64,000 nucleotides of DNA from Candidatus Micrarchaeota archaeon (GTDB lineage Archaea > Micrarchaeota > Micrarchaeia > Burarchaeales > Fermentimicrarchaeaceae), in NCBI GenBank assembly GCA_026396385.1, contig JAPLWV010000051.1:26143-90142 (forward strand). Direction: 5' to 3'. The notes below the pieces were generated by a model, which saw only the letters and a list, made by a program, of their open reading frames with translations, was not told the origin of the DNA and searched no databases. Shown in pieces: positions 5,595 through 32,987 of the stretch. The first letter of the stretch is position 1. Each line of letters opens with the position of its first letter. The position numbers and the translations under genes were made by a program.

Positions 5595-5628
5595 GTTTAT
5601 ATATTGTTACTTAAATTTATAATCTGGT

Positions 5629-10414: not shown

Positions 10415-10484
10415 CGGCTCACGACAAGTTTGTATTTATCATCTTATATCAAAGTTTAAATTCTTAACTATTGATATCCTTATT

Positions 10485-11420: not shown

Positions 11421-11426
11421 TAACGC

Positions 11427-11978: not shown

Positions 11979-12061
11979 GGATGCTGGGAGCTGCTGCTTC
12001 TGAATAACGAAAATTGGATTCCTAGCTAAGATTTAAATCCTTAGACATAGAATGAGATGCT

Positions 12062-14115: not shown

Positions 14116-15441
14116 TCATGTGGAGTTTATTTCTTTAGCTTTGTTCATAGCGCTTCTTATGCAAGCAGCCATGTTCATGTACTTAAACTCCGCGAATCTG
14201 CCGCAGGATTCGATTCTTCTCTTCTTAAGGAATTTGAACACTTTTGAACTATTCTTATTGTAATCCAAATCGTATATTACGTAAGCGTACTCCGACCTTC
14301 TGACATTCCTGTAGGATATCTTCGAATTCCTTGCGAAACCCAGCCTCTCCAAATCCTTTACGACTTGCTTCAAAATTTTATCATCGCTCTGTTTCAACAA
14401 CGGGTCGTTGGGGAGGCAGGTTATCTCCACCAGTACGGATGACTTGCCTTCTGGAGCGACATACCTGGAGAAATTGAACGGGAAGCTCAACCTGTTGAAG
14501 TCGCCATCTTCCTCAGCAGGTATGTACATCCAAGAGATGTTGTTTATCCTCGGCTCGTCAATCCCAACCATCACCGTGATGAGGGAGTTGTATTTCAGGT
14601 TGTTTTTCGCTTCTTTCACATCCTTCGGCACTCCATCCATGGAATCTATCAAGTCAGGAATGGGCATGCAGGAAACAAGCTTGTCATATTTTCTCTCCTC
14701 CTTTCCATCTGAAACAGTGAATTTACCTCCTTCCCTTGCAACTGACTTCACTTCAAAATTGTATGTAATCTTATCTCTGAGCTTCTCCTCCATCGGCTTA
14801 ACAAGCGCATTTATTCCTCCCTGAATTGGATAGTAGAAAATGAGGTTCTGGTGGTATCCTTCAGTTTTGATTCCAAGAGACGATTTTATTATGTCTTCAG
14901 CAGGCGGCATGGGTATCCCGCTTGCCAGCAACTCCAGAGACAGTTTTCCAGGAGGGTAATTCCAGATTTTTCTGTTGTAGGGGATGAGGTATTTCTCAGT
15001 TATCCCTTTCCCGAATGTATAATACATCCACTCCTGGAAATTTGTTGGTTTCTTCACCTTTCCCTTGCTCACTTCTATGAGGTTTTTAATAAATGATGAA
15101 ATGCATTCGTAATTGTCCTGCTTGGGCAGCTGGTAAAGACCATTCTCAAACGGGTATTTGATGTACCTTCCCTTGAAAAGAATCTTGGAGTTTCTCTTCC
15201 TTTTCACCCAGTTTCCGTGAAGCAATTTTCGGTATAAATTGAAAACATCCTTGTCCTTTGTGAATATCACATGAGAGCCGCCATAGTCAAAGGTGAACCC
15301 TTCCTCGGTCAGGCTTCTGCAGAGTCCTCCGCACTCAGAATTTTTCTCCAATATCTCAAAATCCTTCTTGAGATGGAAACCCAAAGTCAAACCGCTTAAG
15401 CCGCCACCAAGAATGCCGATTTTCATGGAAAAACCTTTCAT
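14116..15441 (-). CDS. glf: FAD-dependent UDP-galactopyranose mutase-like flavoprotein
   Basis: N-terminal Rossmann IGILGGGLSGLT. Glf-like blocks ECGGLCRS...YGGSHVIFTKDKDVFNLY and C-terminal GRFAEFKYMNMA (compare E. coli Glf GRLATYKYYNMD). The true start is possibly MKIGIL at 15426. Confidence 0.55.
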   Translation of the reverse strand: MKGFSMKIGILGGGLSGLTLGFHLKKDFEILEKNSECGGLCRSLTEEGFTFDYGGSHVIFTKDKDVFNLYRKLLHGNWVKRKRNSKILFKGRYIKYPFENGLYQLPKQDNYECISSFIKNLIEVSKGKVKKPTNFQEWMYYTFGKGITEKYLIPYNRKIWNYPPGKLSLELLASGIPMPPAEDIIKSSLGIKTEGYHQNLIFYYPIQGGINALVKPMEEKLRDKITYNFEVKSVAREGGKFTVSDGKEERKYDKLVSCMPIPDLIDSMDGVPKDVKEAKNNLKYNSLITVMVGIDEPRINNISWMYIPAEEDGDFNRLSFPFNFSRYVAPEGKSSVLVEITCLPNDPLLKQSDDKILKQVVKDLERLGFARNSKISYRNVRRSEYAYVIYDLDYNKNSSKVFKFLKKRRIESCGRFAEFKYMNMAACIRSAMNKAKEINST

Positions 15442-18534: not shown

Positions 18535-18789
18535 TTATTGGTAAACCTTCTTTCTGTGCCCCAGGTCAATCACATACAGCTTCTTTCCTGCATCATCCAA
18601 ATCTATGAAAACCCGGTAGTCGCCAACCCTCAGCTTCCATATCTTTACAGAAACTAGCCTGTCGAGGAAGAGGTGAGGCGAATCCCTTATCTCCTCAACT
18701 TTCTTTATAATTCTTGAAACTGCAACCTTGTCAAGGGAGGAGAGGGATTTCTCTGCCCTCTTTGTCCAGACAACCTCGTAGGGCATCAC
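18535..18789 (-). CDS. type II toxin, RelE/ParE family
   Basis: 84-aa basic protein ending KLRVGDYRVFIDLDDAGKKLYVIDLGHRKKVYQ (RelE fold signature). Overlaps the upstream antitoxin ORF by 4 bp (ATGA). Confidence 0.75.
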   Translation of the reverse strand: MMPYEVVWTKRAEKSLSSLDKVAVSRIIKKVEEIRDSPHLFLDRLVSVKIWKLRVGDYRVFIDLDDAGKKLYVIDLGHRKKVYQ

Positions 18790-19028
18790 TCAACACCCAG
18801 TTTCCTCAGCAACTCCTTTGTGGAGAGCACCCTGCCCTCTCTAATGTCTTTCCTGCCCTCCTCTATTCCTTTTACTGCCTCCTCGCTCAGCTGCTCCTTC
18901 TCAGCCATTTCGAACACCTTCATAAGCTTGTTCAGTATCTCATCATATGTTTCGCGCGTGTACTCCTTGAGGGAGAGAAGCTTCTCCCGCGTTTCCTTCT
19001 GAATCTGGATTGTCGTAAGCTCAGCCAT
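18786..19028 (-). CDS. antitoxin of RelE/ParE pair
   Basis: 80-aa acidic helical protein immediately upstream of, and translationally coupled to, the RelE-like toxin. Confidence 0.6.
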   Translation of the reverse strand: MAELTTIQIQKETREKLLSLKEYTRETYDEILNKLMKVFEMAEKEQLSEEAVKGIEEGRKDIREGRVLSTKELLRKLGVE

Positions 19029-19182
19029 AAAACCACCAGCAGTTATATACTACCATATAAGTTATTATACCGCAGCTATATAAACCTTCCTCCTGCTACC
19101 GAGCTATAAAATTCGGCATGCAAACGTTTTTATACTATAAGTATCATGAATACCGTTATAAAAAGCATAAAAAGGTGAACGT
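19029..19182. promoter_or_regulatory. divergent promoter region of the two toxin-antitoxin operons
   Basis: 154-bp AT-rich spacer. TATA-like tttatatag (minus-strand sense, about 19075-19084) and cgtttttatac (about 19124-19134) sit about 45-55 bp from the respective start codons. GGTGA Shine-Dalgarno 5 nt before ATG 19183. Confidence 0.4.
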
Positions 19183-19443
19183 ATGAATGTGAATGTGCAG
19201 TTCAAAGGGCTTATGGAGGAGATTCTGGAGGAAGCAGAGCGGAGAGGGATAGCAAAGACAAAAACAGAGGCTCTGAGGCTTGGAGTGCTGGAATTGAACA
19301 ACAGATACCACCTACTGGAGCACAGAGCAGAGGAGATTGAAGACCTGCAGGATACAAAAGAGCTCGAAGAGATGAGAAGTGCTGTCAAAAAAGGAAAAGC
19401 AAAGCTTATCAGCGAAAAAAAGATGCTGGCAATGCTGAAGTGA
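19183..19443 (+). CDS. antitoxin of second RelE/ParE pair
   Basis: 86-aa charged helical protein. Stop lies 4 nt before the toxin start. Confidence 0.6.
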   Translation: MNVNVQFKGLMEEILEEAERRGIAKTKTEALRLGVLELNNRYHLLEHRAEEIEDLQDTKELEEMRSAVKKGKAKLISEKKMLAMLK

Positions 19444-19447
19444 TCCG

Positions 19448-19699
19448 ATGCCCTATGAGCTTTTTTTCGATGCAGACTTCAGCAAAGATGTTGACAGACT
19501 GGACAAGAGCGTAAGAGAGCAGCTCAGAAAAATAATACTTAAAATAAAGCAAAACCTCTATGTTGGCAAAAGGCTTAAGGGCTACTCCAACTTCTTCAGG
19601 GTGAGATTTGGAATTTTTAGAATTATCTATTTTGTCGAAGGCGATAAAATTTACTTCAAAAGAGTTAGAAAAAGAGATGAGGTTTACAGGAATGTGTGA
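19448..19699 (+). CDS. type II toxin, RelE/ParE family (paralogue of 18535-18789)
   Basis: 83 aa. Starts MPYE like the other toxin, with a shared ...FRVRFGIFRIIYFVEGDKIYFKRVRKRDEVY C-terminal pattern. Confidence 0.7.
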   Translation: MPYELFFDADFSKDVDRLDKSVREQLRKIILKIKQNLYVGKRLKGYSNFFRVRFGIFRIIYFVEGDKIYFKRVRKRDEVYRNV

Positions 19700-19790: not shown

Positions 19791-21563
19791 TTGGTTCATA
19801 TGGGGGTTAGAATTGCAATAGTGGACAGGGATAAGTGCACAAAGAAGAAGTGCGGCTACCTGTGCCAGAAAGCATGCCCAGGGGTAAGGATGGGCGACGA
19901 AACGGTTACGGTAGACGCTGAAGGATTTCCGGTAATTTCTGAAACACTATGCTCCGGCTGCGGCATATGCGTGAGGAAATGCCCCGTGAATGCCATAAAG
20001 ATAATAAACCTGCCCCACGAGGCGGGAAAACTCATCTTCCAGTATGGGGTGAATGCCTTCAGGCTTTACAACCTTCCCCTGCCCAAAAAGGGCGCTACAG
20101 TCGGTCTGATTGGGGCAAACGGGATAGGGAAGAGCACTGCGCTTGAGATATTGAGCGGAAGGCTGAAGCCCAACCTAGGCAACTACGGAAAGAAGGCAGA
20201 GTGGGATGAGATAATTGAAAAGTTCAAGGGCCAGGAGCTGCAGAACTACTTCGAGTCGCTTAAGAAAAAGGGTGTGAGGATAAGCTACAAGCCCCAGATG
20301 ATAGACAGACTTCCAGAAGTATTCAAGGAAACTGTTCGCAAGTTCATAAAGAGGAATGACAAACGGGGAAAATTCGAGGAAGCAATTGACGCATTTGAGC
20401 TTAGGGAGTGCCTTGACAGGAAGATTGAGAATCTTAGCGGGGGGGAGCTGCAGAGAATGGCCATATGCGCGGCCTATCTCAAAGATGCGGATGTGTATTA
20501 CATTGATGAGCCCAGTAGCTATCTTGATATAAAACAGAGGCTGAAGGTTTCAAGCAATCTGAGGGAGCTTGCGAAGGAAAAGGCAGTTATAGTTGTCGAG
20601 CATGACCTTGCAGTTCTGGATTATATGAGCGATTACATACACGTATTCTATGGAACCAGCGGAGCATACGGAGTTGTCTCCAAGCCCAAAGGGGTTAGGA
20701 ATGGGATAAATGAGTACCTTGCAGGCTATCTGAAGGAGGAGAATGTCAGATTCAGGAGTACTGAGATAAAATTCACTGCGGGCAGCATTGAGCAGAAGGG
20801 CGGTGAGTTACTTTTCCCGTATGACGAGATGAGCAAACGGTATTCTGGCTTCTCGCTGAAATGTACTTCTGGAGAAGTGAAGAAGGATGAAGTGATAGGC
20901 GTGATAGGCCCGAATGCAATTGGCAAGTCGACTTTTGTGAAACTGCTTGCAGGAGTGGAGAAGCCCGACAAAGGAGAGGTTGAGCAGAAGTTAAGAATTG
21001 CGTACAAGCCGCAGTATATAAAATCGGATTTCAAAGGGACTGTTGATGAGATGATAGCTGCCACAGACAACCTGAACAGGGATGTTTTTGAGAGGGAGGT
21101 CAAAGAGAAGCTCAGCATATCTGAGTTGATGGAGAAGAAGGTGAGGAACCTCAGCGGAGGGGAATTGCAGAGGGTTGCAATTTCATTGTGCATATGCCAG
21201 GAGGCTGACCTCTACCTGCTTGACGAACCATCCGCATTCCTGGATGTGGAGCAGAGGCTTATTTTTGCGGATGTACTTGGCAGGGTGATGGAGGGAAGCG
21301 GGAAGAGCGCATTTGTCGTTGACCATGATATAGTACTTATTGATTCAATTTCTGACAGGCTGATTGTCTTCCGGGGAAGGAGCGGGGTGGAGGGATTTGC
21401 GAATGCACCAGAGGGTAAGAGGGAGGGCATGAACAGGTTCCTGAAGGATGTTGATGTGACTCTGAGAAGGGATAAGGACTCCCTGAGACCGAGGGTGAAT
21501 AAGCCTGGTTCTGTGCTGGACAGGGAGCAGAAGCAGGCTGGTGAGTATTACTACCACAAGTAA
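19791..21563 (+). CDS. abcE1: ABCE1 (RNase L inhibitor / Rli1 homologue), ribosome recycling ATPase
   Basis: N-terminal twin 4Fe-4S Cys clusters (CGYLCQKACPG; CSGCGICVRKCP). Two NBDs with Walker A GANGIGKST / GPNAIGKST and signature LSGGELQR twice. The probable true start is the second ATG at 19800 (MGVRIAIVD). Confidence 0.9.
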   Translation: MVHMGVRIAIVDRDKCTKKKCGYLCQKACPGVRMGDETVTVDAEGFPVISETLCSGCGICVRKCPVNAIKIINLPHEAGKLIFQYGVNAFRLYNLPLPKKGATVGLIGANGIGKSTALEILSGRLKPNLGNYGKKAEWDEIIEKFKGQELQNYFESLKKKGVRISYKPQMIDRLPEVFKETVRKFIKRNDKRGKFEEAIDAFELRECLDRKIENLSGGELQRMAICAAYLKDADVYYIDEPSSYLDIKQRLKVSSNLRELAKEKAVIVVEHDLAVLDYMSDYIHVFYGTSGAYGVVSKPKGVRNGINEYLAGYLKEENVRFRSTEIKFTAGSIEQKGGELLFPYDEMSKRYSGFSLKCTSGEVKKDEVIGVIGPNAIGKSTFVKLLAGVEKPDKGEVEQKLRIAYKPQYIKSDFKGTVDEMIAATDNLNRDVFEREVKEKLSISELMEKKVRNLSGGELQRVAISLCICQEADLYLLDEPSAFLDVEQRLIFADVLGRVMEGSGKSAFVVDHDIVLIDSISDRLIVFRGRSGVEGFANAPEGKREGMNRFLKDVDVTLRRDKDSLRPRVNKPGSVLDREQKQAGEYYYHK

Positions 21564-21574
21564 TTCTTGGGCTA

Positions 21575-22111
21575 TTGTTAGTTTGTTTGTTTATTCTTGG
21601 ATGTTTTGGGGCATCCAATACTCCTCAAGGTAATACCCCCCCCCAAGATGCTAAATCAAAACAATATGAACAATTGAATAAAGATTTGCAAACGTATAAT
21701 ACGATCCTTCAGGGTGATAGCGACAAACTCGGAACTTTAAATATGGAAGGAAATGCAATAATTTCAAGGTATAATAATGCAACGACTAAACAAGATCGTT
21801 ATACTGCTTTTAGTGATTATCTGACGTGGGCGCAAAAGTATGCGAATCACGTTGAACTGATGGATAAACATCTCGCCGATTATGAAGACTATCTATCCGA
21901 TAATAAAGCACTATTAGATGAAGGAAAAGTGAATACTATACAACTGGAAAGTTCTATTGGCGATAGTAGGATTGCACTTAAACAAAGTGCTCAACAAGTA
22001 AAAACCAATATTGAAAGTATGAAGGCAACGATAGAAATGGAGCAAAAAATAGAACAGCAAAAACAAGACTTAATTATGAACATTCTAAGGATATTGATCG
22101 GCTTAAGTTAA
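21575..22111 (+). CDS. hypothetical secreted/lipobox protein
   Basis: Hydrophobic N-terminus LVCLFILGC followed by a polar coiled region. AT-rich codon usage unlike its neighbours. Start is TTG (no ATG available). Confidence 0.45.
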   Translation: MLVCLFILGCFGASNTPQGNTPPQDAKSKQYEQLNKDLQTYNTILQGDSDKLGTLNMEGNAIISRYNNATTKQDRYTAFSDYLTWAQKYANHVELMDKHLADYEDYLSDNKALLDEGKVNTIQLESSIGDSRIALKQSAQQVKTNIESMKATIEMEQKIEQQKQDLIMNILRILIGLS

Positions 22112-22140
22112 GAAGCCAAAGCAATCTTAAAAAATATTCC

Positions 22141-22159
22141 AATTTTACGTCGTAAAATT
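22141..22159. repeat. 19-bp perfect palindrome aattttacg-t-cgtaaaatt between two convergent genes
   Basis: Read directly; located in the 100-bp gap between the stops of 21575-22111 (+) and 22212-26240 (-). Confidence 0.6.
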
Positions 22160-22211
22160 ACAACTGTCTCGGACGCTGTAGACTCCAAGCAGTTGGTGAG
22201 GTCGCACACTA

Positions 22212-25200
22212 TTAGTATATTTTTATGGTTTTGGAGTTTACTGCTTCGCTGTTGCCTACGTTGTCGGTGCTATTGTATGTTATATAGCTCGTCCCTTTGG
22301 TTGAAACATAGATTTTGATGAGTCCTTTGTATGAGTCGTTTATTTCGGTTGCTGATAACGCCCTGTTGAATATCTTCACTTCGTCTATTGTGCCGTTAAA
22401 CCAACCACTATTCCCCCTTGCACAACCGATATATGGGGTATAGATAAGACTTGCGACACCTCCGAGGGCTAATGAATTTGAAGTTACATAAGCCCCGTTT
22501 TCCCATAAGGAGAAGTTATTGCCATCCCTCACCCCGCATACATGAAGCCATACATTATTTGTGACTGAATTACCACGCAAATCAATCGCATAACCATACA
22601 TATCCCTTACATGAAACCTAGTCACATAATTCCCGCTAGTATTCATTAATTGTATCGAATAGGATTCCCCGATTGATGTCGAATTTGTTTTGGCGAATAT
22701 TACAAAGGTCGTACTACTGTCTTGCGGAAGATTGGTTGGATATACCCAAGCACAAATGCTAAAGTTACCAGAACCGAAATTAAAGAGAGAGGAATTCGTG
22801 ATATTCACAAGGTCATTCTTCCCGTCAAAACTCAACGCAGGTCCGTATTTGCCTCCTGTCCAGGTTGCACCACTGATGGTTCCGGTATTCCCATTCCCGC
22901 TTGAGTCGTTTGCTGTGGTTCCTGTCCCTTCGTTGAGATTCCAGTAAGCCCGTAGATTGGATATGTCAGCAATCTGCTGAGATGTTAGGGCGGTGCCGTA
23001 TATCTTCACATCGTCTATCGTGCCGTAGATCACACTCCCTCCTTGCTGTCTTCCTATGTAGAATTTGGCAATGCTTGGCCGGATTGCTGAAATTGCCTGC
23101 GGGCTACCGCTCTGAACACCATCAATATAGATTATCGCATGCGTCCCATTCCATACTGCAGCAATGTGGTGCCAGTTGGTGTCTATTGTTGCTGTGGAAG
23201 TGGCTGATATTGTTGCGCTATCATCGGATTTTCTCAGTGTGAATGATATGGTGTTACCAGTGTTTTGGTTGATTGCATAACTGCGTTGTCCAGCAGCGGC
23301 ATTCCATCTGCTGAGTATTGTCCTTGCACTTGTCAAACTTGTGTTTGATGTCTTGAACCAGAGAGAGATGGTCATAGCTGTGAAATCCCTTAAAATAGTT
23401 GAATTGCCACAATAGACATTGTTAGTGGATAAACCATTAAAGCGCAATGCATTTCCGTATTTGCCTCCTGTCCAGGTTGCACCACTGATGGTTCCGGTAT
23501 TCCCATTCCCGCTTGAGTCGTTTGCTGTGGTTCCTGTCCCTTCGTTGAGATTCCAATAACCAAGTAACGAATAGTTGTACATATTAGCAATTTCGGTTGC
23601 TGATAACGCCCTGTTGAATATCTTCACATCATCTATCGTGCCATTGAACAAAGTGCCGCTTGCTGTGTTTCTACCTATATAAGTAGTAGTTATCGACGAT
23701 TGCAGATTGCTGAATGCTACTATATTATTTGTTTGGAGGATGCCATTAAGATATGTGTATATGTGCGTTCCATTCCAAACCCCAACGATATGATACCAAC
23801 TATTTGTTGCAGTTATGGCAGAATCTATACAGGAAGTAGCCCATACTGCATCGCTTATATTTCTTGTCATAAAGCAGAATTTGTTTGCTGTGTCCTGAAC
23901 TATCTGATATGAACGTTGTCCAGCAACAGAATTAGCTCGTGCAACTATCGCCTTTGCTGAAGCATAATTCAATTGTGCAGGATTTATCCATACACTAATC
24001 GTCATAGCAGTAAAATTCCGCAAAATAGTTGCATTCCCAACATTCACGTAACTACTTCCATTAAAACTCAATGCATTTCCAATCCTCCCTGATGTCCAAC
24101 TTGCGCCTATGATGGTTCCGGTATTTCCATTCCCGCTTGAGTCGTTTGCTGTGGTTCCTGTCCCTTCGTTGAGATTCCACAGGCCTACTAGACCGCTTTC
24201 TGTGGAAATTGTTGGCGTGCATAAGTTGCTTGTATCTATGCAATAGTGGGTTATTGCACAGCCGCTTGTTGCATCTGTGCAGAGTAAGGTCACGTTGACA
24301 TAGGAAGAGTTAGTCCATGTGTTTTCTGTGTAATTTGAGCCGTCGCTCTCTACTAAGGATGCAGAAGTTGAAGGTGGTGTTTTATCAAAAATTACTGAAC
24401 TCGAGTCAGTTGTGCTGGTCACCCGTACTCCGGAGATATATGAATGACTTATGAAATCAATTGTGAAATTCACTGTCCCTTCGCTATCACCGGGAGCCAT
24501 TGTATAAGTTGCCGTATAAGAATTCCCTCCAGTGCTGGATACCGAAGCTGTATGACCTGCGATTTTAACAACAGGGTTATTGGACAATGCTTTGTCTGCG
24601 GTAGATGAAAGATTTATGCTGTTACCTACTTTCGCCTTGCTTGAGTCAGAGTTGTTTGATTTTATTTTGACAGAGGTTAGCACAGGTGGAACCACGTCAT
24701 CTCCGAAAAAATGAACTCTCATGCTTAGGCCTTTGGCACTGTTTACAAAAACTGAAACCTGTGTATTATTCCCCCAGTTGTCAATTGAGCTCGGAGTTGT
24801 CGTATCGTTGAAATATTGTTTTGCGGCATTACTCGAGTAAGCAGCATCTGTAACATCCAATACGTATTCAGGCACAATTCCCTTTTGTACGCAAGCGTTT
24901 ATTGTATTGTTTGTCCTGCTGCATGGAACATGCCCGTATATGTACCAGTTGTCTATATGCCATATGACAGTTCCCTCACCTGGGATATACGCATCAAATC
25001 CAACTTTTTCTCTATTCTCTACTATATAATACTCTTTATCAACATTCAGAATTGAATTGTTGATGATAAACGCTTGGCTTTTATTCTCAAGATTTTTCAC
25101 GTAATATGAGATGGGGTTACCGGTCAGCTGGGTTGCCTTTAACCATCCCAGGTCTATCTTGCACCAGGCGCTCATATGAGTTGGAACAGTGCCGTCATAG

Positions 25201-26240
25201 CTTGGACCTCCCCATGAACCACCATCCATAAGGTCCCAAGTATCGACTACCCAATCTCCAGAATATGTATTATACAAATCAGGCAGACCTAAATCATGCC
25301 CAAACTCATGCGCAAAAACTCCGGTTTTACCGTACTCGGGGTCCATTGTGTATAGGTATACTCTTTTGCCGTCAACCAGCTGACCTCCGGGAATAACCCA
25401 GCTGTGGGACCATATGCTTGTATCTGGGGGGTAGCCTTCCTCCTGCCCATGACCGCTATGGATTATTATGACGTGATCCGCATAGCCATCACTATCCGTA
25501 TCATAATCTGCAAAATTAACATTTGGATTTGCCAGCAGGATCGCCTCTCTTGTAAGCTCATAAATATAGACTGGCCAATTCGGCCCCGGTTGACCAGTAT
25601 CTATATATCCATACCCATCAGTTGCGTAGTACTCCACTGGGTGACTGCTTGTATACCAGCCAAGCACAGTGCCTGTCAGGTTTAGCTTGCCATAGGATAC
25701 TTCATTGTAATAACTCGTTAGGCTAAGTGGGTTGGATGCATTGAACAGCAAATTCTGAAAATACGCTGTATCATGGGACGGATCATGAGCCTGGTTAGTA
25801 AACTGTATGAGGATAACTACCACTTTATGGGTGCCTGTTGGCGGAGGAGCATATTGAGGCTGATCTTCCATAGACGCCCTTCTAGTTGTTGGAACAGGAA
25901 TGTCACTTTCTATTGAAAGTTTGGAAGAGTCAATGGCTTTGAAAATGCTTTTATGTATACCTATTGATTGAGGTGACACATGACCGACTCTCAAATCAAC
26001 GGACTGGTTCAAGAGTTCATTTTGTGTGACGTATGTCCACCATTCACCAGTTTTTTGGATAGCATAGCCAGTTTCAGTTTCATACCAGTATCCATTCTCA
26101 TCGCCTCTTAGATAGCCCTTGAATGTTGTATTGTCTGGTTGTTGGAATTCATGTAGGATGGGTCTGGCTGGTACTGCGTAGCAGATACCTGATAACAAAA
26201 ATATTGAAATGAGTATAGTCAGCTCAGTTAGTTTTCTCAT
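22212..26240 (-). CDS. secreted M6-family (immune inhibitor A-like) zinc metalloprotease with three C-terminal LamG / concanavalin-A-like lectin repeats
   Basis: Signal peptide MRKLTELTILISIFLLSGICYA. Zinc site VFAHEFGHDLGLPDLY (HExxHxxGxxD of M6/InhA). Three repeats, each about 205 aa, beginning WNLNEGTGTTANDSSGNGNTGTI.GA.WT and ending GTIDDVKI(F/Y). Start taken at the second ATG (26240). Confidence 0.75.
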   Translation of the reverse strand: MRKLTELTILISIFLLSGICYAVPARPILHEFQQPDNTTFKGYLRGDENGYWYETETGYAIQKTGEWWTYVTQNELLNQSVDLRVGHVSPQSIGIHKSIFKAIDSSKLSIESDIPVPTTRRASMEDQPQYAPPPTGTHKVVVILIQFTNQAHDPSHDTAYFQNLLFNASNPLSLTSYYNEVSYGKLNLTGTVLGWYTSSHPVEYYATDGYGYIDTGQPGPNWPVYIYELTREAILLANPNVNFADYDTDSDGYADHVIIIHSGHGQEEGYPPDTSIWSHSWVIPGGQLVDGKRVYLYTMDPEYGKTGVFAHEFGHDLGLPDLYNTYSGDWVVDTWDLMDGGSWGGPSYDGTVPTHMSAWCKIDLGWLKATQLTGNPISYYVKNLENKSQAFIINNSILNVDKEYYIVENREKVGFDAYIPGEGTVIWHIDNWYIYGHVPCSRTNNTINACVQKGIVPEYVLDVTDAAYSSNAAKQYFNDTTTPSSIDNWGNNTQVSVFVNSAKGLSMRVHFFGDDVVPPVLTSVKIKSNNSDSSKAKVGNSINLSSTADKALSNNPVVKIAGHTASVSSTGGNSYTATYTMAPGDSEGTVNFTIDFISHSYISGVRVTSTTDSSSVIFDKTPPSTSASLVESDGSNYTENTWTNSSYVNVTLLCTDATSGCAITHYCIDTSNLCTPTISTESGLVGLWNLNEGTGTTANDSSGNGNTGTIIGASWTSGRIGNALSFNGSSYVNVGNATILRNFTAMTISVWINPAQLNYASAKAIVARANSVAGQRSYQIVQDTANKFCFMTRNISDAVWATSCIDSAITATNSWYHIVGVWNGTHIYTYLNGILQTNNIVAFSNLQSSITTTYIGRNTASGTLFNGTIDDVKIFNRALSATEIANMYNYSLLGYWNLNEGTGTTANDSSGNGNTGTISGATWTGGKYGNALRFNGLSTNNVYCGNSTILRDFTAMTISLWFKTSNTSLTSARTILSRWNAAAGQRSYAINQNTGNTISFTLRKSDDSATISATSTATIDTNWHHIAAVWNGTHAIIYIDGVQSGSPQAISAIRPSIAKFYIGRQQGGSVIYGTIDDVKIYGTALTSQQIADISNLRAYWNLNEGTGTTANDSSGNGNTGTISGATWTGGKYGPALSFDGKNDLVNITNSSLFNFGSGNFSICAWVYPTNLPQDSSTTFVIFAKTNSTSIGESYSIQLMNTSGNYVTRFHVRDMYGYAIDLRGNSVTNNVWLHVCGVRDGNNFSLWENGAYVTSNSLALGGVASLIYTPYIGCARGNSGWFNGTIDEVKIFNRALSATEINDSYKGLIKIYVSTKGTSYITYNSTDNVGNSEAVNSKTIKIY
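22843..22943. repeat. about 101-bp coding-sequence repeat, copy 3 (LamG repeat head)
   Basis: Identical to 23454-23554 over about 101 nt (ccgtatttgcctcctgtccaggttgcaccactgatggttccggtattcccattcccgcttgagtcgtttgctgtggttcctgtcccttcgttgagattcca). Confidence 0.8.
23454..23554. repeat. about 101-bp coding-sequence repeat, copy 2
   Basis: See copy 3; offset 611 bp. Confidence 0.8.
24111..24179. repeat. about 69-bp coding-sequence repeat, copy 1 (1 mismatch)
   Basis: gatggttccggtatttccattcccgcttgagtcgtttgctgtggttcctgtcccttcgttgagattcca; offset 625 bp from copy 2. Confidence 0.75.
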
Positions 26241-26667
26241 ATTGATACACCATCCTTTCTCCTTTACTAATCGAGACATTTGCTTGAATTATATCACCGA
26301 CGGCAATTCCAGATAGATTTACATCTGTATTACTTGGACCCAGTGGCGGCATATCTACGGTAGTAGCTGATGTTCCCCATTGAAATACGAAATTGTTGAT
26401 ATCGCTTTTTTCCAATTTTATCGTGCCATCGCGTTTATCTGAATCATAAGAGATAAGGTCCAGAATCTCAAGCCTTGCGCTTTGCGTTTGAACATTCAAA
26501 ACTCTCGCCCTAATAACTGCCGAATCAGTAAGTGGTTTTGGAGGTATGACTTCTGTTGAATCGTTAGATCCCGTAGTACTATTTGGGTTAATTGTATTTG
26601 GCGAAAGTGACTCTTTAGTAATACAGCCTGAAAAAAATAGGATTGCACAGACTAGTGAAACCAGCAA
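26224..26667 (-). CDS. hypothetical lipobox/secreted protein
   Basis: N-terminal MLVSLVCAILFFSGC hydrophobic segment ending in a lipobox-like SGC. Ser/Thr/Asn-rich linker. Confidence 0.5.
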   Translation of the reverse strand: MLVSLVCAILFFSGCITKESLSPNTINPNSTTGSNDSTEVIPPKPLTDSAVIRARVLNVQTQSARLEILDLISYDSDKRDGTIKLEKSDINNFVFQWGTSATTVDMPPLGPSNTDVNLSGIAVGDIIQANVSISKGERMVYQYEKTN

Positions 26668-27318
26668 AACATTACAGGAAAATTTTTTCGTTTTAGACCA
26701 CTTCCAACTTATCTTTCGTATATTTAGTAGCCTTGTTAGCTATGAGTATTATAATTTGTCTTTCTTCTTAAACTTATTGTTCCATGAGAGCCAAAAAATA
26801 TTTTAATTATGGAAATTATTTTGCCTCGGACGCTGTTCAGCAGAAGCAGTCAGCGAACTCATTCAATTAATTACTTTCTTAGTAATTAATTTTACGGATT
26901 CCAAATAATATTTGAGGTTCTAGTATAAAAAAGTATTGTTAAGAAGGGCTTTGCTAAGAAAGTCTCGTTTGCTCATAAACTCCCTCATCTGCTCAAAAAG
27001 TCGGGGTTTAAGGCGAGTTCTTTAGCAAAGCCGTTAAGAAGAATAGTATTTTAAATGATTAATTCATTTTTATTAATGTGGTAAAACTAGAAGATTATTT
27101 TTATGGAGTAATTGTATATCTGATGAAAAAATGGTTATGCGTCCTCGCAAATCAGCGAGACGCACCGAGAGCCGATTTTCAGTCGTATGAGAATTACGGG
27201 TGGCGAACCGTTGGCCTCAACACCAGATACTCTAAGAAACTTTGAGGGGAATTTATTTGACAGAACAGTGGAGTTCTGGAAAGATTTTTTCAAAGAACTT
27301 AATTCCGGGATTAGTAAA

Positions 27319-27915
27319 CTACTCTATGAACTTATCAATAACTTTCCCGCCACTTTGGTTGAGAATCAGTTTTATCAAGTAGTCTGCATTGAGTGAGCTC
27401 CATCTTACTACCCAAACCGAGGGGTATGTGGAGTTTGTTTTTGGCTCAAAGTAGTTATCGTAGAATGCAGCATCAACTCTGACATTTGAATAACCAAAGT
27501 TGTTCACAAACGAGTCAACTTCCGAAACATTGTTGAGTTTGTGCGAAGCAATAATCGCTTCCTCGGGCATGGTTATTTTGCAGACTGGTATATCCTTGCA
27601 CCCAAGCAACTGGCAGTCTTGGGTTATGTTGTTCTGGTCCCTTGGGACAAAGCCGAATTTGGGGTATTCGTATACAACAATTGATAAATCCGGGCAGGGA
27701 GTGTTTGCTCCATAGATTACCTTTGAAGTCATCTTCCAGCTCCCATCCTGCGAAGCCACATTGAAAACATCTGTGGTAGACCCAGGGTACTGCACCTGCA
27801 TGTGCTCCTTGACAAGCGCCACAGCTTTGTCCTGTGTCATCTGCTCGTTCGGCTGGGTACATCCAGAGAGTAGTAAGAATAGGGCAACTACTATGAAAGG
27901 ATATTCTGGTCGCAT
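27319..27915 (-). CDS. hypothetical lipobox/secreted protein
   Basis: MRPEYPFIVVALFLLLSGCTQ signal/lipobox; 198 aa; several Cys. Confidence 0.5.
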   Translation of the reverse strand: MRPEYPFIVVALFLLLSGCTQPNEQMTQDKAVALVKEHMQVQYPGSTTDVFNVASQDGSWKMTSKVIYGANTPCPDLSIVVYEYPKFGFVPRDQNNITQDCQLLGCKDIPVCKITMPEEAIIASHKLNNVSEVDSFVNNFGYSNVRVDAAFYDNYFEPKTNSTYPSVWVVRWSSLNADYLIKLILNQSGGKVIDKFIE

Positions 27916-27960
27916 ACGCCTTCGGAGTAATAATCGGAGCCCTAGTATAAAAAGATAACG

Positions 27961-29661
27961 TCAGCTGGCAGTTGGGTTCGTAACTCTTCCTATGAATAGG
28001 ATGTTACCGGTATCCCTCTGCTGTATGATGAAGATGAATGGGTGGTCTGCTCTGAATACCGGCTTTGGAGTTGCGGGTATGGCCGTCATAGCCATGATTA
28101 CGGCAGTTGCTGCAGCTGCTTCTGTTCCAGTCTCATTCACCTCAATAAATGCCTGGTGTATGACATTGCTGATATACAGGTTTCTCGTTCCATCCATGCC
28201 GGAAAAGTCCGCTTCGTTTGGATCAAACGCCTTTTCGATTCCCATATTCTTTAGGGTGTCAACCATGAGGTACTTAGTCTCAAACTTAAATCTAGGCATA
28301 TAAACACCGGCAAGCTCTGTTTCGCTTAGCATAGCCTTCAATTCATTTAAGTTGTCTGTAGTGAGTGACTGTTCAAGATCCTGCAGATTGTCTTCTTTTG
28401 GAAGAATTATGAGCATGGATACATCATCACCTTGGTAAGGCAGCTCAAGAATTTGAGTTTCGTTTGTTTCTGCGTAATTGAATCTCAGGGGAACTGACTC
28501 GCCATCAGATGTCTTCACATAGTCGCCGTCCAGAGACATCATCTTAACTTTTACGGTCTTTGTTGGGGTTACTCTAAAGTCTTGGTCAGTAGTATCGTTT
28601 AAAAACGGTATAAGCCAGTGCGCTTTGAAATAGACCGCGTTTGTAAGAACCAAACGAGTCAACTCGTCGATGGCTCCCGGCGGTATTATATCTTTAATTT
28701 TGTTGTTTGTCTGTCCCTCCACCCATTGGTTTATAGTCACGCGGGAGTTTTCGGTATCACCCTTAAAGTCGAGATTTGTCACATTTCCGCCGTAATATTC
28801 GTCTACTAAACTGAAATAATCGTCTAAGAACTTGTAATCCTTCTGCGCCCATAATGCATTTGCAGTGCTGAGGTTGTATTCTTTGTCTTTCTTGTTTATC
28901 TCATTGTAAACTCCTGCGAAACCTAGTCTTCGTGTATTATTATCCGGGGGGAAATGAAAAACAGCTTGCATTTCTTCTGCTGTTTGGCCTCTTGCACCCT
29001 CATAGGTCATTGCCAACGCAGTTGAGATGCTGTAGGGAGAGAATAACAGATTGTCATTCTGGAACTTGTACTGCGAGTAGAGGTCAAATGCAAACTGATT
29101 GTTAGCGTTTACTACATTGTTTACGGCTTCTGTGATTGTTGCGTTATTGGGAGATGAAGATGTATTTACGCATTTGAGTTTATCGCTATCCCAGCATCTT
29201 CCCTCTCCGCAATCGCAAGCTTTCACTTCATGGCTGTTGCTTGGGGAGCAACCGCAGGCTCCTATGAGGCAGGTATTCGGGAAATCACCAACCGAATTGC
29301 AGCATAGGTGAGTTGTAACATTTCCACCCCCCATCCTACATTGATTTTCGGTATACCAGCTTCTGTTAAACCCAATGCTCTCGCAGAACCCTTCGGACTG
29401 GCAGCTGATTGAACTGCAAGCCGCGCATGGCGGGCATACCACGCACTGGCTGGGGCATTTATCAACAGAATAATTCTGGCAGTTGGTTACATTTGGGCAG
29501 GGAGCAAATTCGCAATTTGGACCGACTCTCCCAACAGATGAGCCGTCAGGGCAAACCTTGGCTTCTTCCGTGCATGCTCTAGGTGGGTTTATCTGCGTGC
29601 ATCCAGCCCACAAGAATAAAGTTGCAACAAACAATAGAACTATGAGAGTTTTTGTTTTCAT
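27961..29661 (-). CDS. serpin (serine protease inhibitor) with about 150-aa Cys-rich N-terminal domain and lipobox signal
   Basis: Serpin blocks FSPYSISTALAMTYEGARGQTAEEM, NAVYFKAHW, hinge/RCL ETGTEAAAATAVIMAMTAIP, FRADHPFIFIIQQ and FIGRVTNP. Signal MKTKTLIVLLFVATLFLWAGC. Residues about 20-165 contain about 30 Cys. Start moved to ATG at 29661; the 44 upstream codons lack signal-peptide features. Confidence 0.85.
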   Translation of the reverse strand: MKTKTLIVLLFVATLFLWAGCTQINPPRACTEEAKVCPDGSSVGRVGPNCEFAPCPNVTNCQNYSVDKCPSQCVVCPPCAACSSISCQSEGFCESIGFNRSWYTENQCRMGGGNVTTHLCCNSVGDFPNTCLIGACGCSPSNSHEVKACDCGEGRCWDSDKLKCVNTSSSPNNATITEAVNNVVNANNQFAFDLYSQYKFQNDNLLFSPYSISTALAMTYEGARGQTAEEMQAVFHFPPDNNTRRLGFAGVYNEINKKDKEYNLSTANALWAQKDYKFLDDYFSLVDEYYGGNVTNLDFKGDTENSRVTINQWVEGQTNNKIKDIIPPGAIDELTRLVLTNAVYFKAHWLIPFLNDTTDQDFRVTPTKTVKVKMMSLDGDYVKTSDGESVPLRFNYAETNETQILELPYQGDDVSMLIILPKEDNLQDLEQSLTTDNLNELKAMLSETELAGVYMPRFKFETKYLMVDTLKNMGIEKAFDPNEADFSGMDGTRNLYISNVIHQAFIEVNETGTEAAAATAVIMAMTAIPATPKPVFRADHPFIFIIQQRDTGNILFIGRVTNPTAS

Positions 29662-29719
29662 GTTTATGGTATTATAAAAAGAACTTAAAAATGTTCCCAA
29701 TTTGTTCGGTGAAAACCGA

Positions 29720-30610
29720 TCAAAAATTATTTTTGAGCCTTTCAACTGCCTCTTTCCATGTTGGGACGTTCGTCTGCGCTCCATGCTTTTCAACTATGAA
29801 TGAGGACACAGATGACGCAACTTTCGCGCACATTTTCAAATCCTCGCCTCTCAGAAATGCTGAAAGGAAGGCTGCCCTGAAAGAATCCCCTGCGCCTGTC
29901 GGGTCGACAAACCTAGCCTTCACTGCAGGCACATCAAAACTCCCATCTCTTGTGGTGACAGAACTGCCTTTTGCTCCTTTTGTCGTTATGATGTATTCAA
30001 CAGGGAACGCGAAAAGCTCCTCCTTGCTTCTCATTCTAAGAAGCGTGAGAATTCTCCGCATCTCAAACTCATTGCATGTGAGGAACTTTGTGTTTTTTAG
30101 GACTCCTTCAAGCTCTTTCTTTCCATAGGCAATTATGTCATAGCCCGGGTCGAAAGAAACCCCGGGATATTTTTTGGCTATCCTCATGCTGAAATCAGGG
30201 TCGCCATTCGCCAGGTGCACAATATCGTTTTTCCCCATTTTCAATTTTGGGACTGGTGCCCTGTGGAAAAGCTCGGCAACTCCCCAGTAGAAGAATGACA
30301 TCTGCCTATGCCTGGAGTCATTGAACATGAATGCCCTTGGGGTTTGGCCACCTTTCACGATTTTCAGGTGAATTAGATCAACCTTGTTGAGCCTGAGATG
30401 TCTTTCATAGCCAGAACCTCTGAAATCCCCGCCAACGAACGAGATTAGAGATGTCTTCTGACCAAGCTTCGAGCATACAGCTGAAAAATTTCCTGCAGCC
30501 CCTCCAAAAAGCTCGAAGTATCTTTTTATGTATGTGGTGGAGTTCGGCTTTGGAAATTCCTTCACTTCGCCTATGTTATCATAGACAACCTGTCCGACAG
30601 AGTATATCAT
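29720..30610 (-). CDS. PfkB-family (ribokinase-like) carbohydrate/nucleoside kinase
   Basis: C-terminal DPTGAGDSFRAAF (DTxGAGD anion-hole motif); N-terminal GG sugar-binding motif region. Confidence 0.75.
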   Translation of the reverse strand: MIYSVGQVVYDNIGEVKEFPKPNSTTYIKRYFELFGGAAGNFSAVCSKLGQKTSLISFVGGDFRGSGYERHLRLNKVDLIHLKIVKGGQTPRAFMFNDSRHRQMSFFYWGVAELFHRAPVPKLKMGKNDIVHLANGDPDFSMRIAKKYPGVSFDPGYDIIAYGKKELEGVLKNTKFLTCNEFEMRRILTLLRMRSKEELFAFPVEYIITTKGAKGSSVTTRDGSFDVPAVKARFVDPTGAGDSFRAAFLSAFLRGEDLKMCAKVASSVSSFIVEKHGAQTNVPTWKEAVERLKNNF

Positions 30611-31027: not shown

Positions 31028-32317
31028 ATGGGCATTCTGATCAAGAATGTCAGCATACTGACACAAAACAGCAGGAGGGAAATCCTCAGGGACGTTGATA
31101 TACTTACAGAGGGTAATAGAATAGAAAAAATAGGCAAAAATGTAAGGGAGAGGGCAGAATTCAAGATAGACGGAAGGGGGAAACTTGCCGTTCCTGGTTT
31201 GGTAAACACCCACAGCCATGTAGCAATGACACTCTTCAGGGGATATGCTGATGACATGAGATTCTGGGAGGCATGGCCGGAGAGGATATGGCCGAAAGAG
31301 AAGAAGTTGAAAGCAGAGCATGTATACTGGGGCGCTATGCTCGGATGCATGGAGATGATCAGGAGCGGCACAACATGCTTTATGGATAACTATTTTTTCA
31401 TGGAGGAGGTTGCAAAGGCAGTAAAGGAGATAGGAATTCGAGCTAATCTTGCCTATGGCATGATAGATTTGGATGACGCAGGAAAAAGAAAAAAGGAGTT
31501 GGAGATTGGAGAGGGGTTTGTCAAAGACTTCAATGGCAAAGCAGATGGCAGGATAACGTGTTCATTCAGTCCCCACGCCCCCTACACCTGCTCCAGGGAA
31601 CTGCTGCTCAAGTCAAAGGAGCTTGCAGAGAAACATGATGTCTTGCTGCAGATTCATGTTTCAGAGACAAGGAAGGAGGTTTTCGATTCACTTAAAAAGT
31701 TTGGCAAGAGGCCTGTTGAATACCTGGATTCAATCGGATTTCTCGGCAGGAGGGTTATGGCTGCTCACTGCGTATGGATTACAAAAAGGGAAGTGAGGAT
31801 GCTGGGGGAGAAAGGAACTAGAGTATCGTATAACCCAGTGAGCAACATGATGCTCGCTTCCGGTGGAGTGGCACCAATACCGCAGATGCTTGAGAGCAAG
31901 ATCTGTATAACATTTGGGACTGATGGAGCAGTGTCTAATAACTCCCTGAATATGCTTGAAACGATGAAAGTGGGGGCATTGCTCCAGAAAGCGCATCATT
32001 GGGATGCAAGGGTGCTTAATGCACAGCAGGCAGTGGACTTTGCAACCTGCAATGGAGCTGCAGCACTTTGCATGAACAGCGGCAGCATAGTGGAGGGGAA
32101 GCTCTCGGATATGTCCCTCATGGAACTTAAATCCCCGAACCTGCTCCCGGAAAACAACCTTGTCTCAAATCTGGTTTACTCTTCTAACCCATCAAACATA
32201 TCTGACATGATAATAGATGGAAAGCTTGTTATGGAAAACAGAAAGATTCTGACAATTGATGAAGAGAAAGTTTTTGAAAATGTGGAGAAAGTTGCTGAGA
32301 AACTTACGCGCGATTAG
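31028..32317 (+). CDS. amidohydrolase, MTA/SAH / 5-deoxyadenosine deaminase-like (MtaD/DadD family)
   Basis: Metal-binding VNTHSHVAMTLFRG (HxH). Overall length 429 aa and the C-terminal GTDG...D pattern of the TIM-barrel amidohydrolases. Confidence 0.7.
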   Translation: MGILIKNVSILTQNSRREILRDVDILTEGNRIEKIGKNVRERAEFKIDGRGKLAVPGLVNTHSHVAMTLFRGYADDMRFWEAWPERIWPKEKKLKAEHVYWGAMLGCMEMIRSGTTCFMDNYFFMEEVAKAVKEIGIRANLAYGMIDLDDAGKRKKELEIGEGFVKDFNGKADGRITCSFSPHAPYTCSRELLLKSKELAEKHDVLLQIHVSETRKEVFDSLKKFGKRPVEYLDSIGFLGRRVMAAHCVWITKREVRMLGEKGTRVSYNPVSNMMLASGGVAPIPQMLESKICITFGTDGAVSNNSLNMLETMKVGALLQKAHHWDARVLNAQQAVDFATCNGAAALCMNSGSIVEGKLSDMSLMELKSPNLLPENNLVSNLVYSSNPSNISDMIIDGKLVMENRKILTIDEEKVFENVEKVAEKLTRD

Positions 32318-32987
32318 AACTTCCTGTAAGTTTAGCGTCCGTTATCTTGAATATCCCCCTAACTCCATCCCATCTCTTCTCGCTTTTTAATATTTTCAAT
32401 CTCTTTTTGAACATTGGGGAATGAAGGACAAATGTTTCCATCTCTCCTCCTTCTCCAGCAATTGATATGCCGTATCTGTCCCTGAGTTTCAGCAGTTCTT
32501 TTATGCATTCATCGTCTATCCTTCTCCCAAGCCAGCTCTCGTCAAACCCTTCTGCAGAAACAGAAGTTATGATTACCTCAAAACCTGCATCTAGCATGTC
32601 CTTCAAAAGCATCTCTCCATCCTTATGCCAGAGGGGGGAGAAGCTCCTTAAACCCAGCTCCTCGCATATCATATCCACCTTCTCTTTCTGGTACTCACTG
32701 CCTAACGCTCCAGTCACCACCCCATCAACCTTAACGCTCTGAATAAGGGATTTTAAGTCATCAAGTTCCGAGTCCTTCTCACCTGAGCTTTTCTGCATGA
32801 TAAGCGGAAGACCCATTGCCTCTGCCTGCAGCGGAGTCCACTCGACATTGGGGCGGTGAAACATGTAGGAGGAATCGGAAGCCGGAAGCATCGTTAGCAG
32901 AACTTTGGCTTCCCATCCAAACGAGTTTGCAGTCCACAGAGCATATACACTATCCTTACCACCACTGAAAAGCAGAGCGACTTCCAT
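32304..32987 (-). CDS. dph6: diphthine-ammonia ligase (Dph6; MJ0570-type PP-loop ATPase)
   Basis: PP-loop LFSGGKDS at N-terminus; 227 aa; family-typical EGGEMETFV block. Confidence 0.7.
   Translation of the reverse strand: MEVALLFSGGKDSVYALWTANSFGWEAKVLLTMLPASDSSYMFHRPNVEWTPLQAEAMGLPLIMQKSSGEKDSELDDLKSLIQSVKVDGVVTGALGSEYQKEKVDMICEELGLRSFSPLWHKDGEMLLKDMLDAGFEVIITSVSAEGFDESWLGRRIDDECIKELLKLRDRYGISIAGEGGEMETFVLHSPMFKKRLKILKSEKRWDGVRGIFKITDAKLTGSSNRA

Follow-up and report, generated by a model that had tools for sequence, protein, structure and literature searches.

Why does a DPANN archaeon keep genes for a secreted protease, a protease inhibitor and three small proteins side by side between abcE1 and a PfkB kinase gene? 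Could this 8-kb interval represent a single foreign island, as an original prediction made from the DNA letters had proposed, or do its genes have separate histories? The locus lies in a stretch of 64,000 nucleotides (the window) of contig JAPLWV010000051.1. The host is assigned to the DPANN archaea, because the serpin, the M6 protease and the small protein p198 are each 100% identical to proteins of one Candidatus Micrarchaeota metagenome-assembled genome (MAG). All five open reading frames (ORFs) are present where they had been placed: ORF1 (21575-22111, plus strand, 178 amino acids) and, on the minus strand, the M6 protease (22212-26240, 1342 amino acids), p147 (26224-26667, 147 amino acids), p198 (27319-27915, 198 amino acids) and the serpin (27961-29661, 566 amino acids). 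We consider it probable that the neighbourhood is composite, with a resident serpin and p198 to which an inserted block of 5,755 bp has been added, and that this block holds a laterally exchanged p147-M6 cassette, an orphan ORF and a spacer.

Gene order in related genomes separates the two parts. The order PfkB, serpin, p198 and, convergent with p198, abcE1 recurs in six relatives (L001, L004/L008, L005, L002/L009, L007 and L016), with serpin identities of 64-88% across these loci, and p198 also adjoins abcE1 in a seventh (L010). In L001, p198 and abcE1 end with their stop codons only 1 nt from each other; in the blastn alignment, window position 21561 corresponds to L001 position 12347 and window position 27313 to 12349, and the flanks thus abut within 1-3 nt. 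Since they do, the A+T-rich DNA at 21564-27318, which fills the space between the convergent stop codons of abcE1 (19791-21563, stop at 21561-21563) and p198 (stop at 27319-27321), is an insertion relative to these relatives. Gene tables show the site to be empty in L004, L005 and L016 as well, and elsewhere it is occupied otherwise, by BacA in L007, by a methyltransferase in L010 and by a truncated remnant of that methyltransferase in L002. The insertion is missing at the abcE1/p198 site in all seven related genomes examined, and the site between p198 and abcE1 is a turnover hotspot. The PfkB gene that closes the interval on its other side lies at 29720-30610.

Base composition draws the same line. 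The whole interval from abcE1 to the PfkB gene had been described as visibly A+T-rich, and it does have the lowest GC content of all 8-kb windows of the contig (0.420 against 0.446 in the rest of the window), at only about 1.9 standard deviations under the mean. The shift resides in 21564-27318, where GC is 0.409 and where the minimum of all 5.75-kb windows falls exactly; it does not extend to p198 and the serpin (27319-29661), whose GC of 0.448 equals that of the rest of the window. A sliding-window and codon-usage comparison, proposed earlier as a check, splits the genes likewise. Relative to 53 window genes, z-scores for GC at third codon positions (GC3) are -3.1 for ORF1 (GC3 0.28), -2.8 for p147 and -1.3 for M6, but +0.45 for p198 and -0.4 for the serpin. 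Synonymous codon-choice likelihoods agree: the inserted genes deviate, while the serpin and p198 are host-typical. Long intergenic A+T tracts had also been described; there is one (26668-27318, 651 bp, GC 0.34) and no second long one. The description of the ORFs as rich in asparagine is borne out for all five proteins, at 7-9% against 1-6.9% in most other window genes.

Where does the p147-M6 cassette have its nearest kin? In a search of 5.8 billion proteins, only one homologue of the M6 protease exceeded 54% identity. This protein, P0122 (73% identity, 915 amino acids), is encoded about 35 kb from the serpin locus of L007 on the same contig (k141_1329927), among unrelated genes, with a GFO_IDH_MocA gene on one side and a GT2/RFC pair on the other. 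The 145-residue ORF before it is 92% identical to p147 and overlaps the M6 start. In a blastn comparison with L006, window positions 24065-26824 match 9423-12177 at 86.9% and positions 22210-22394 match at 77%. DNA homology with L006 is limited to 22210-26824, a two-gene cassette on the minus strand (promoter region, p147 and M6) shared with this relative (L006/L011). Core genes of the same two genomes are 69-82% identical in DNA. In 150-nt windows, the promoter region and p147 show identities of 0.95-0.99, a level also attained in parts of M6; the M6 catalytic domain shows 0.89-0.97, and identity falls in the pro-region and the laminin-G-like (LamG) part of M6. At four-fold degenerate sites, identity is 0.905 for p147 and 0.705 for the N-terminal 725 codons of M6, against 0.35-0.49 for eleven core genes and 0.575 for the serpin. 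Because four-fold-site identity exceeds that of the core genes, the cassette appears much younger than the split of the two genomes. Judged from these comparisons, it has evidently been swapped laterally among Micrarchaeota, directly or from a common donor. Only one other instance of a p147 partner turned up in a pattern-based scan of Joint Genome Institute (JGI) metagenome contigs.

Horizontal acquisition, which the original prediction had suggested for the whole module, thus holds for the insertion, given its absence from relatives, its deviant composition and its four-fold-site identity, but not for the serpin and p198. To the accompanying question whether the nearest relatives are bacterial, the answer is no: the closest M6 homologue is from a Micrarchaeote, the next M6 homologues examined lie on archaeal-looking contigs, and the closest serpin homologues belong to Micrarchaeota.

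The cassette is bracketed by two copies of an imperfect direct repeat about 65 nt long. The downstream copy (22129-22193) contains ACAGCGTCCGAG ... AATATTTTTT, and the upstream copy (26793-26850) straddles the end of the L006 homology at 26824. Among shuffles, 0.1% score as high in local alignment as the two copies do, and among other window segments 0.5%, a result that hints at recombination without proving it. The locus shares with flexible genomic islets its position between conserved convergent genes, a content that varies by relative, and inserted DNA that is deviant in composition and younger than the genome; it differs from them in being very small, with two functional genes, no integrase, tRNA or insertion sequence, and only this weak repeat.

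The larger gene of the cassette encodes an M6 peptidase of familiar build. It matches PF05547 (Peptidase_M6) with 102.4 bits (cut-off 22) and the NCBIfam model TIGR03296 with 214.7 bits (cut-off 110.8). Its zinc motif is intact, HEFGHDLGLPD at residues 311-321, comprising HEXXH with a downstream Asp (25310-25296). Three Laminin_G_3 domains (PF13385, 236 bits, about 24179-22371) and a C-terminal OmpL47-type Ig-like strand follow. The LamG domains contain 133-nt DNA repeats that are 80-92% identical and spaced 612-624 nt apart (22371-24179), a pattern that marks all three as apparent products of recent tandem duplication. The 915-residue protein of the relative matches about two-thirds of the window M6, consistent with fewer LamG repeats. 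The signal peptide occupies residues 1-22 (26240-26175); the N-terminus reads MRKLTELTILISIFLLSGICYA followed by VPARP, with a predicted signal peptidase I site between CYA and VPARP. In 13 homologues this site is kept (x-x-A before the cut, V/M-P-A-x-P after it), whereas the cysteine is not. In M6, Ile precedes the Cys (LSGIC) and the lipobox rule given below does not apply. M6 is therefore predicted to be a secreted protein of the signal-peptidase-I type, not a lipoprotein. With InhA of Bacillus thuringiensis/cereus (MEROPS M6) it shares the catalytic domain, HEXXHXXGXXD, a Sec signal peptide and an extracellular multi-domain build. It differs from InhA in its DPANN host, in the three recently duplicated LamG domains of its C-terminal Ig-like module, in the lipoprotein gene that always overlaps it upstream, and in dense N-glycosylation sequons.

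That upstream gene, p147, shares 17 nt with the M6 gene, its end running into the M6 start, and it combines a lipobox (FFSGC, Cys15) with a conserved C-terminal domain of about 108 residues. Homologues sit directly upstream of M6, overlapping its start, in L006 (92% identity), L014 (48%) and L012 (52%, C-terminal domain), the M6 proteins of L012 and L014 being 47-54% identical to that of the window. All four M6 partners carry a lipobox (FFSGC, FFSGC, ILSGC and VLGC). By these signs p147 is a conserved, predicted lipoprotein partner of this M6 subfamily, probably coupled to it in translation, a pairing that is new in the sense of being undescribed. The NCBI product for p147 is only 91 amino acids long (MCX6776197.1). 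Neither Pfam nor the Protein Data Bank (PDB) holds a relative of the domain, a profile of four family sequences giving only a meaningless lipoyl-domain match, and an AlphaFold2 (AF2) model on a 3-sequence alignment is unusable (predicted local distance difference test score, pLDDT, 43).

A separate observation concerns the partner in L012 (7262-8062), which has an extra Cys-rich stretch and a DUF333 domain. DUF333 also occurs at the C-terminus of an Altiarchaeota serpin (P0051), so that the same accessory domain is found on two different protease-related surface proteins.

What might p147 do? It is possible, though we put this forward tentatively, that p147 represents a new family whose members are anchored by lipid and serve as obligate partners to M6 proteases of one archaeal subfamily, acting as tether, chaperone or cognate inhibitor, and that the overlapping unit is a surface-protease cassette spreading among DPANN archaea by short-repeat recombination without a mobility gene. 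If so, movement of the cassette would help episymbionts with reduced genomes to remodel their interaction surface. A more specific proposal, which fits the same anatomy and which we regard as rather unlikely, is that p147 and M6 form an antagonism module in which M6 would be an effector against host or competitor surface proteins and p147 an anchored inhibitor or immunity protein. The analogy is with the serralysin-Inh/AprI and staphopain-staphostatin operons. It draws further on an overlapping pairing that is strictly conserved across M6 proteins 47-100% identical, on the small size of the p147 domain (predicted, at low confidence, to be all-beta), on the behaviour of the cassette as a mobile accessory unit, and on the lectin-like LamG domains, which suggest that the protease binds a target. 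Yet p147 matches no known inhibitor family in sequence or structure, the unusable model adds nothing here, and a tether, chaperone or maturation role fits the same data equally well.

The remainder of the insertion comprises ORF1 and the spacer. ORF1 begins MLVCLFILGC; this hydrophobic stretch starts 12 nt past the abcE1 stop and lacks a charged n-region, and its Cys is at residue 10, or at residue 6 in the NCBI call of 174 amino acids from TTG 21587 (MCX6776195.1), so the lipobox rule is not satisfied. Sequons are not enriched (0.56 per 100 residues). Its sequence suggests a lipoprotein gene that has lost its 5' end. ORF1 has no homologue in the fetched loci or in viral contigs and is a singleton in 90% clustering, no broad homology search having been made; its best sign of a family is a sub-threshold coiled-coil match (betaPIX_CC, 23.7 bits against a cut-off of 26.8). 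No Pfam family exceeds its curated cut-off for ORF1, p147 or p198, and PHROGs and NCBIfam return only sub-threshold matches for the small proteins, driven by signal peptides or coiled coils.

The spacer (26825-27318, 494 bp, GC 0.36) has no counterpart among the fetched loci. Its ORF fragments, including one at 27187-27396 with the string ITGGEPL, were considered as gene remnants and rejected, for they have no Pfam match and no similarity in the fetched loci. Within it lies an imperfect hairpin (26926-27053) with 44-nt arms that are 73% complementary (-29 kcal/mol, z -2.3); it has no Rfam match and no second copy in the window or the fetched loci. An Rfam scan (E <= 1) of 21000-30000 gave no match at all. 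A scan for sigma-70 promoters and terminators found no more sites than in shuffled sequence, with a model that is irrelevant for archaea.

Turning to the resident genes, the serpin domain (PF00079, 404 bits, cut-off 27) spans residues 186-563 and all but the first of the 370 model positions (2-370); among solved serpins, 8gxv is the nearest (E 1.8e-82). Inhibitory serpins have a hinge with Glu at P17, Gly at P15, Thr at P14 and small residues at P12-P9. The window serpin shows the hinge ETGTEAAAAT in a reactive-centre loop at 28128-28039, with ETGTEAAAATAVIMAMTA at residues 510-527, and it is predicted to be of the inhibitory type. The loop differs strongly among close relatives. Other prokaryotic inhibitory serpins include Tk-serpin, aeropin and miropin, the last a lipoprotein serpin of Tannerella forsythia. 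The window protein shares with prokaryotic inhibitory serpins such as 8gxv the full fold, the canonical hinge and the variable reactive-centre loop, and with miropin a lipoprotein-type N-terminus. Unlike the known ones, it carries a Cys-rich region of 165 residues with shuffled modules between lipid anchor and serpin domain; it would be lipidated by an archaeal pathway. Comparison of this region (residues 22-185, 29598-29107) with Pfam and the PDB gave no match. Proteins labelled as candidate phyla radiation (CPR) bacteria, Actinobacteria, Omnitrophota and several archaeal phyla share 58-65% identity with the serpin core, and because of this identity to bacteria-labelled proteins an older inter-domain transfer of the serpin clade is likely.

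Comparison of DPANN serpins (P0004-P0011, P0020, P0028 and P0051) yielded a further observation on the Cys-rich region: a module of the form C-T-x-E-A-K-x-C-P-D-G-S-x-V-G-R-x-G-P-N-C-E-F-x-P-C-P, together with other small disulfide-type modules, has been duplicated, lost or swapped among them.

Does the serpin inhibit its M6 neighbour? Serpins inhibit serine or cysteine proteases. A role as cognate M6 inhibitor was rejected, the mechanistic classes being mismatched and the two genes adjacent only in this genome; since serpins do not act on metalloproteases, the apparent pairing of a protease with its inhibitor is best read as an accident of insertion.

The second resident gene, p198, has no Pfam family but a clear predicted structure. 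A model built on a 61-sequence alignment (pLDDT 95.2) shows two tandem modules, each a helix on a four-stranded sheet, and p198 is confidently predicted to adopt a tandem PepSY/FTP/cystatin-like fold. The best Foldseek match is the FTP-PepSY propeptide of vibriolysin MCP-02 (3nqy_A; probability 1.0, E 3.7e-4), followed by a C. difficile lipoprotein (4exr) and the fungalysin propeptide (4k90); the fold is generic, and NTF2, VirB8 and cystatin also match. By sequence, p198 matches neither Pfam PepSY nor FTP, its 61 family members giving only weak YfjL_N or Cystatin matches, and nothing in the PDB is significant. A protease-regulatory or inhibitory role suggested by the model is a lead only. Compared with the FTP-PepSY propeptides of M4/M36 proteases (3nqy, 4k90) and the tandem-PepSY proteins YpeB/YpmB, p198 is free-standing, unfused and, as predicted, membrane-anchored, and TM-scores are low (0.3) because module orientation differs. 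The wider family comprises 146 representative clusters, none of them annotated. A hydrophobic N-terminus is present in 122 of 122 full-length members and a lipobox in 8; to judge by these N-termini, the family is always anchored at that end, and the clade of p198 uses a lipid anchor.

From their synteny and composition, the serpin and p198 appear as long-standing, vertically inherited neighbours, not foreign genes. An obligate functional pair was rejected, for a 49%-identical lipobox serpin stands alone among housekeeping genes in L018. Homologues of p198 occur without a serpin, near abcE1 or PfkB, in L010 and L017. The L010 locus (DRTY-6 Micrarchaeia) offers an observation of its own: a 286-residue ORF (4931-5791), which by eye resembles an IS-type transposase, lies directly upstream of the p198 homologue, and two FtsZ genes replace the PfkB-serpin side, a rearrangement that parts p198 from the serpin.

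How are these proteins held at the cell surface? All five ORFs had been credited with a short hydrophobic segment ending in Cys, and literally this is so. A lipobox is a narrower matter, requiring an n-region, an h-region and [LVI..][ASTVI..][GAS]-Cys within about 15-35 residues. When a PROSITE-PS51257-style pattern was run on all ORFs of the window, from each of their starts, it matched the serpin at Cys21, p198 at Cys19 and p147 at Cys15 and no other large ORF taken as a gene in 64 kb. Two extra matches were set aside as evident false positives, one at 50658 (a Rossmann-type N-terminus) and one at 43463 (an internal start). The serpin (N-terminus MKTKTLIVLLFVATLFLWAGC, LWAGC, Cys codon at 29601-29599) and p198 (N-terminus MRPEYPFIVVALFLLLSGC, LLSGC) follow the rule in full. 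In every full-length serpin homologue (11 of 15 sequences fetched, 46-100% identical) the Cys is invariant, in the variants LWAGC, LLSGC, LLVGC, LLAGC, LFMGC and LFAGC; in p198 it is likewise invariant in every full-length homologue of the clade. The proposed archaeal lipobox thus stands for the serpin and p198, by pattern and conserved Cys, is likely for p147, which matches the pattern and has the Cys in 4 of 4 family members but lacks a charged n-region, and falls for M6, with its signal peptidase I site, and for ORF1, with its early Cys and missing n-region. In archaea the lipobox Cys is archaeol-modified in an AliA/AliB-dependent manner, and predicted lipoproteins and AliA are common in DPANN, AliA 'with some gaps' (PMC12462473). 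With the AliA/AliB lipoproteins of Haloferax volcanii (PMC12462473), the serpin and p198 share the n-region, the h-region and [GAS]-Cys, and p147 the h-region and lipobox only. Against a strict [L/V/I] at lipobox position -3, the serpin has Trp and p147 Phe. A further difference from the H. volcanii pathway is that lipidation in Micrarchaeota is a prediction from sequence.

The cysteine-containing N-termini might instead be uncleaved transmembrane anchors or ordinary signal peptides, a reading that we find doubtful. In its favour, 114 of the 122 wider p198 family members have a hydrophobic N-terminus without a lipobox, so that such an anchor works there; p147 lacks an n-region; and no lipidation enzyme was identified here, AliA/AliB not having been searched for. 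Against this, the Cys is invariant in a G-C context in serpins that are 46-100% identical, in four M6 partners and in the p198 clade, the lipobox pattern is otherwise rare among window genes, and archaeal lipidation has been shown experimentally, with DPANN lipoproteins predicted to be common (PMC12462473).

The picture of an extracellular cluster gains from sequon density. N-glycosylation sequons number 37 in M6 (2.76 per 100 residues) and 12 in the serpin (2.12), and reach 2.72 per 100 residues in p147 and 2.02 in p198, whereas 47 other genes average 0.37 +/- 0.42 with a maximum of 1.47. This density marks M6, p147, p198 and the serpin as putative extracellular proteins; together with their export signals it upholds the surface assignment made in the original prediction. 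These four well-supported proteins would be exported by Sec and N-glycosylated, an AglB/STT3 gene lying at 15438-17390. The serpin, p198 and p147 would be tethered on the outer membrane face after an archaeol thioether had been placed on the lipobox Cys by AliA/AliB-type enzymes and the signal peptide cleaved. M6, cut by signal peptidase I between CYA and VPARP, may then diffuse off, or may be held or controlled by co-translated p147, and on the cell surface the serpin would trap serine proteases. In this account we infer that the proteins are lipidated and glycosylated, and likewise what p147 does and what the proteases act on. Directly observed are the genes present, the borders of the insertion, synteny in the relatives, the surplus of synonymous-site identity in the cassette, the conserved lipobox Cys and signal peptidase I site, the enrichment in sequons and the modelled fold of p198.

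Several points weigh against the composite reading and its lipoprotein part. The contig is a MAG sequence. The GC content of the cassette, 0.42, is only mildly under that of the host, the A+T signal coming mostly from ORF1, p147 and the spacer. No integrase or transposase domain (Pfam) and no tRNA gene was found at the insertion, the window as a whole having no tRNA, and the flanking repeat is only modestly significant (p about 0.001-0.005). In more distant genomes the serpin and p198 are apart, and a functional link between them is unsupported. Lipobox calls come from the PS51257-style pattern and from conservation. Begun at its sole canonical start (TTG 26667), p147 lacks a positively charged n-region and, while matching the pattern, has no Lys or Arg. 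Upstream of this start the frame is open (26668-26742, minus strand) and encodes ...KTKKFSCNV, a good signal-peptide n-region; the KTKK stretch is in frame in L006 as well (9505-9579), and it is without ATG, GTG or TTG. This upstream frame may point to a non-canonical start codon or to a mis-called start.

Could the cassette be ancestral at this site and have been deleted independently in the relatives, with no lateral transfer? Deletions do occur there, as the turnover from BacA to methyltransferase, remnant or nothing shows. We nonetheless hold this to be improbable, for it needs loss in seven sampled relatives that span 67-92% p198 identity, the sole other copy of the cassette lies at a different locus, and four-fold-site identity of 0.71-0.91 against a core of 0.35-0.49 is not predicted by vertical descent.

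The proposal that the whole 8 kb between abcE1 and PfkB is one acquired island, possibly bacterial, with five lipoproteins, has become very improbable. It drew on the interval being the lowest-GC 8-kb window of the contig, on the Cys after a hydrophobic N-terminus in five of five ORFs and on the bacteria-labelled relatives of the serpin core. What survives of it is the inserted part, 21564-27318. Six relatives have the serpin and p198 in synteny, and a seventh has p198 in its place by abcE1; both genes have host-typical GC3 and codons; it is in Micrarchaeota that the nearest homologues of the serpin and M6 occur; M6 conserves a signal peptidase I site and not the Cys; and ORF1 departs from lipobox rules.

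That the 5.75-kb block was mis-joined in a multi-strain metagenome is scarcely credible: although the source is a MAG and populations with and without the cassette share one sample (Ga0315279 contigs), two chimeric joins would be required, both falling where a gene ends and leaving the flanks on either side collinear with the relatives, neither ORF1 nor the 494-bp spacer resembles any other sequence in the fetched loci, and the NCBI record gives the same gene order under consecutive accessions (MCX6776195, MCX6776197 and MCX6776198).

On the composite reading, the components are all of known kinds, namely a serpin, an InhA-type protease, archaeal lipoproteins and a flexible genomic islet. The novelty lies in the p147-M6 pairing, which is conserved, in the p198 family, which has no annotation, and in a datable exchange of surface genes between Micrarchaeota. 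Current views are not overturned, the island being less extensive and less unusual than first proposed. Since DPANN archaea combine a tiny genome with life on other cells, their few surface proteins are likely tools of interaction; this locus appears as a clean, datable swap of a surface-protease cassette between Micrarchaeota lineages, landing in a hotspot bordered by two essential genes. The conserved lipobox on the serpin and on two unannotated DPANN families provides concrete candidates for the archaeal lipoprotein pathway, and the p147-type M6 partner and the p198 family are targets for functional work.

Other parts of the window show variability too. Between pelota and abcE1 (18786-19699), 2 kb away from the insertion, lies a second variable spot with toxin-antitoxin-like small genes: a DUF7557-like gene of 80 residues on the minus strand, then, on the plus strand, genes of 86 and 83 residues, of which the 83-residue one resembles ParE_toxin. 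L001 has this cluster; L002, L007 and L016 do not, and there pelota directly adjoins abcE1. Most core proteins match their L001 counterparts at 95-97% identity; lower values are found for an amidohydrolase (75.6%), the gene at 32304-32987 (60.6%) and that at 14116-15441 (80.5%), and an extra PNP_UDP_1 gene is found in both L001 and L004 (stretch compared: window 31028-32987 and 14116-15441). This uneven identity suggests mosaic recombination among co-occurring populations. Finally, a 243-residue gene at 57193-57924 on the plus strand (GC 0.355, GC3 0.29, z -2.9) deviates as much as ORF1 and p147 do, and it too may be a recent acquisition.

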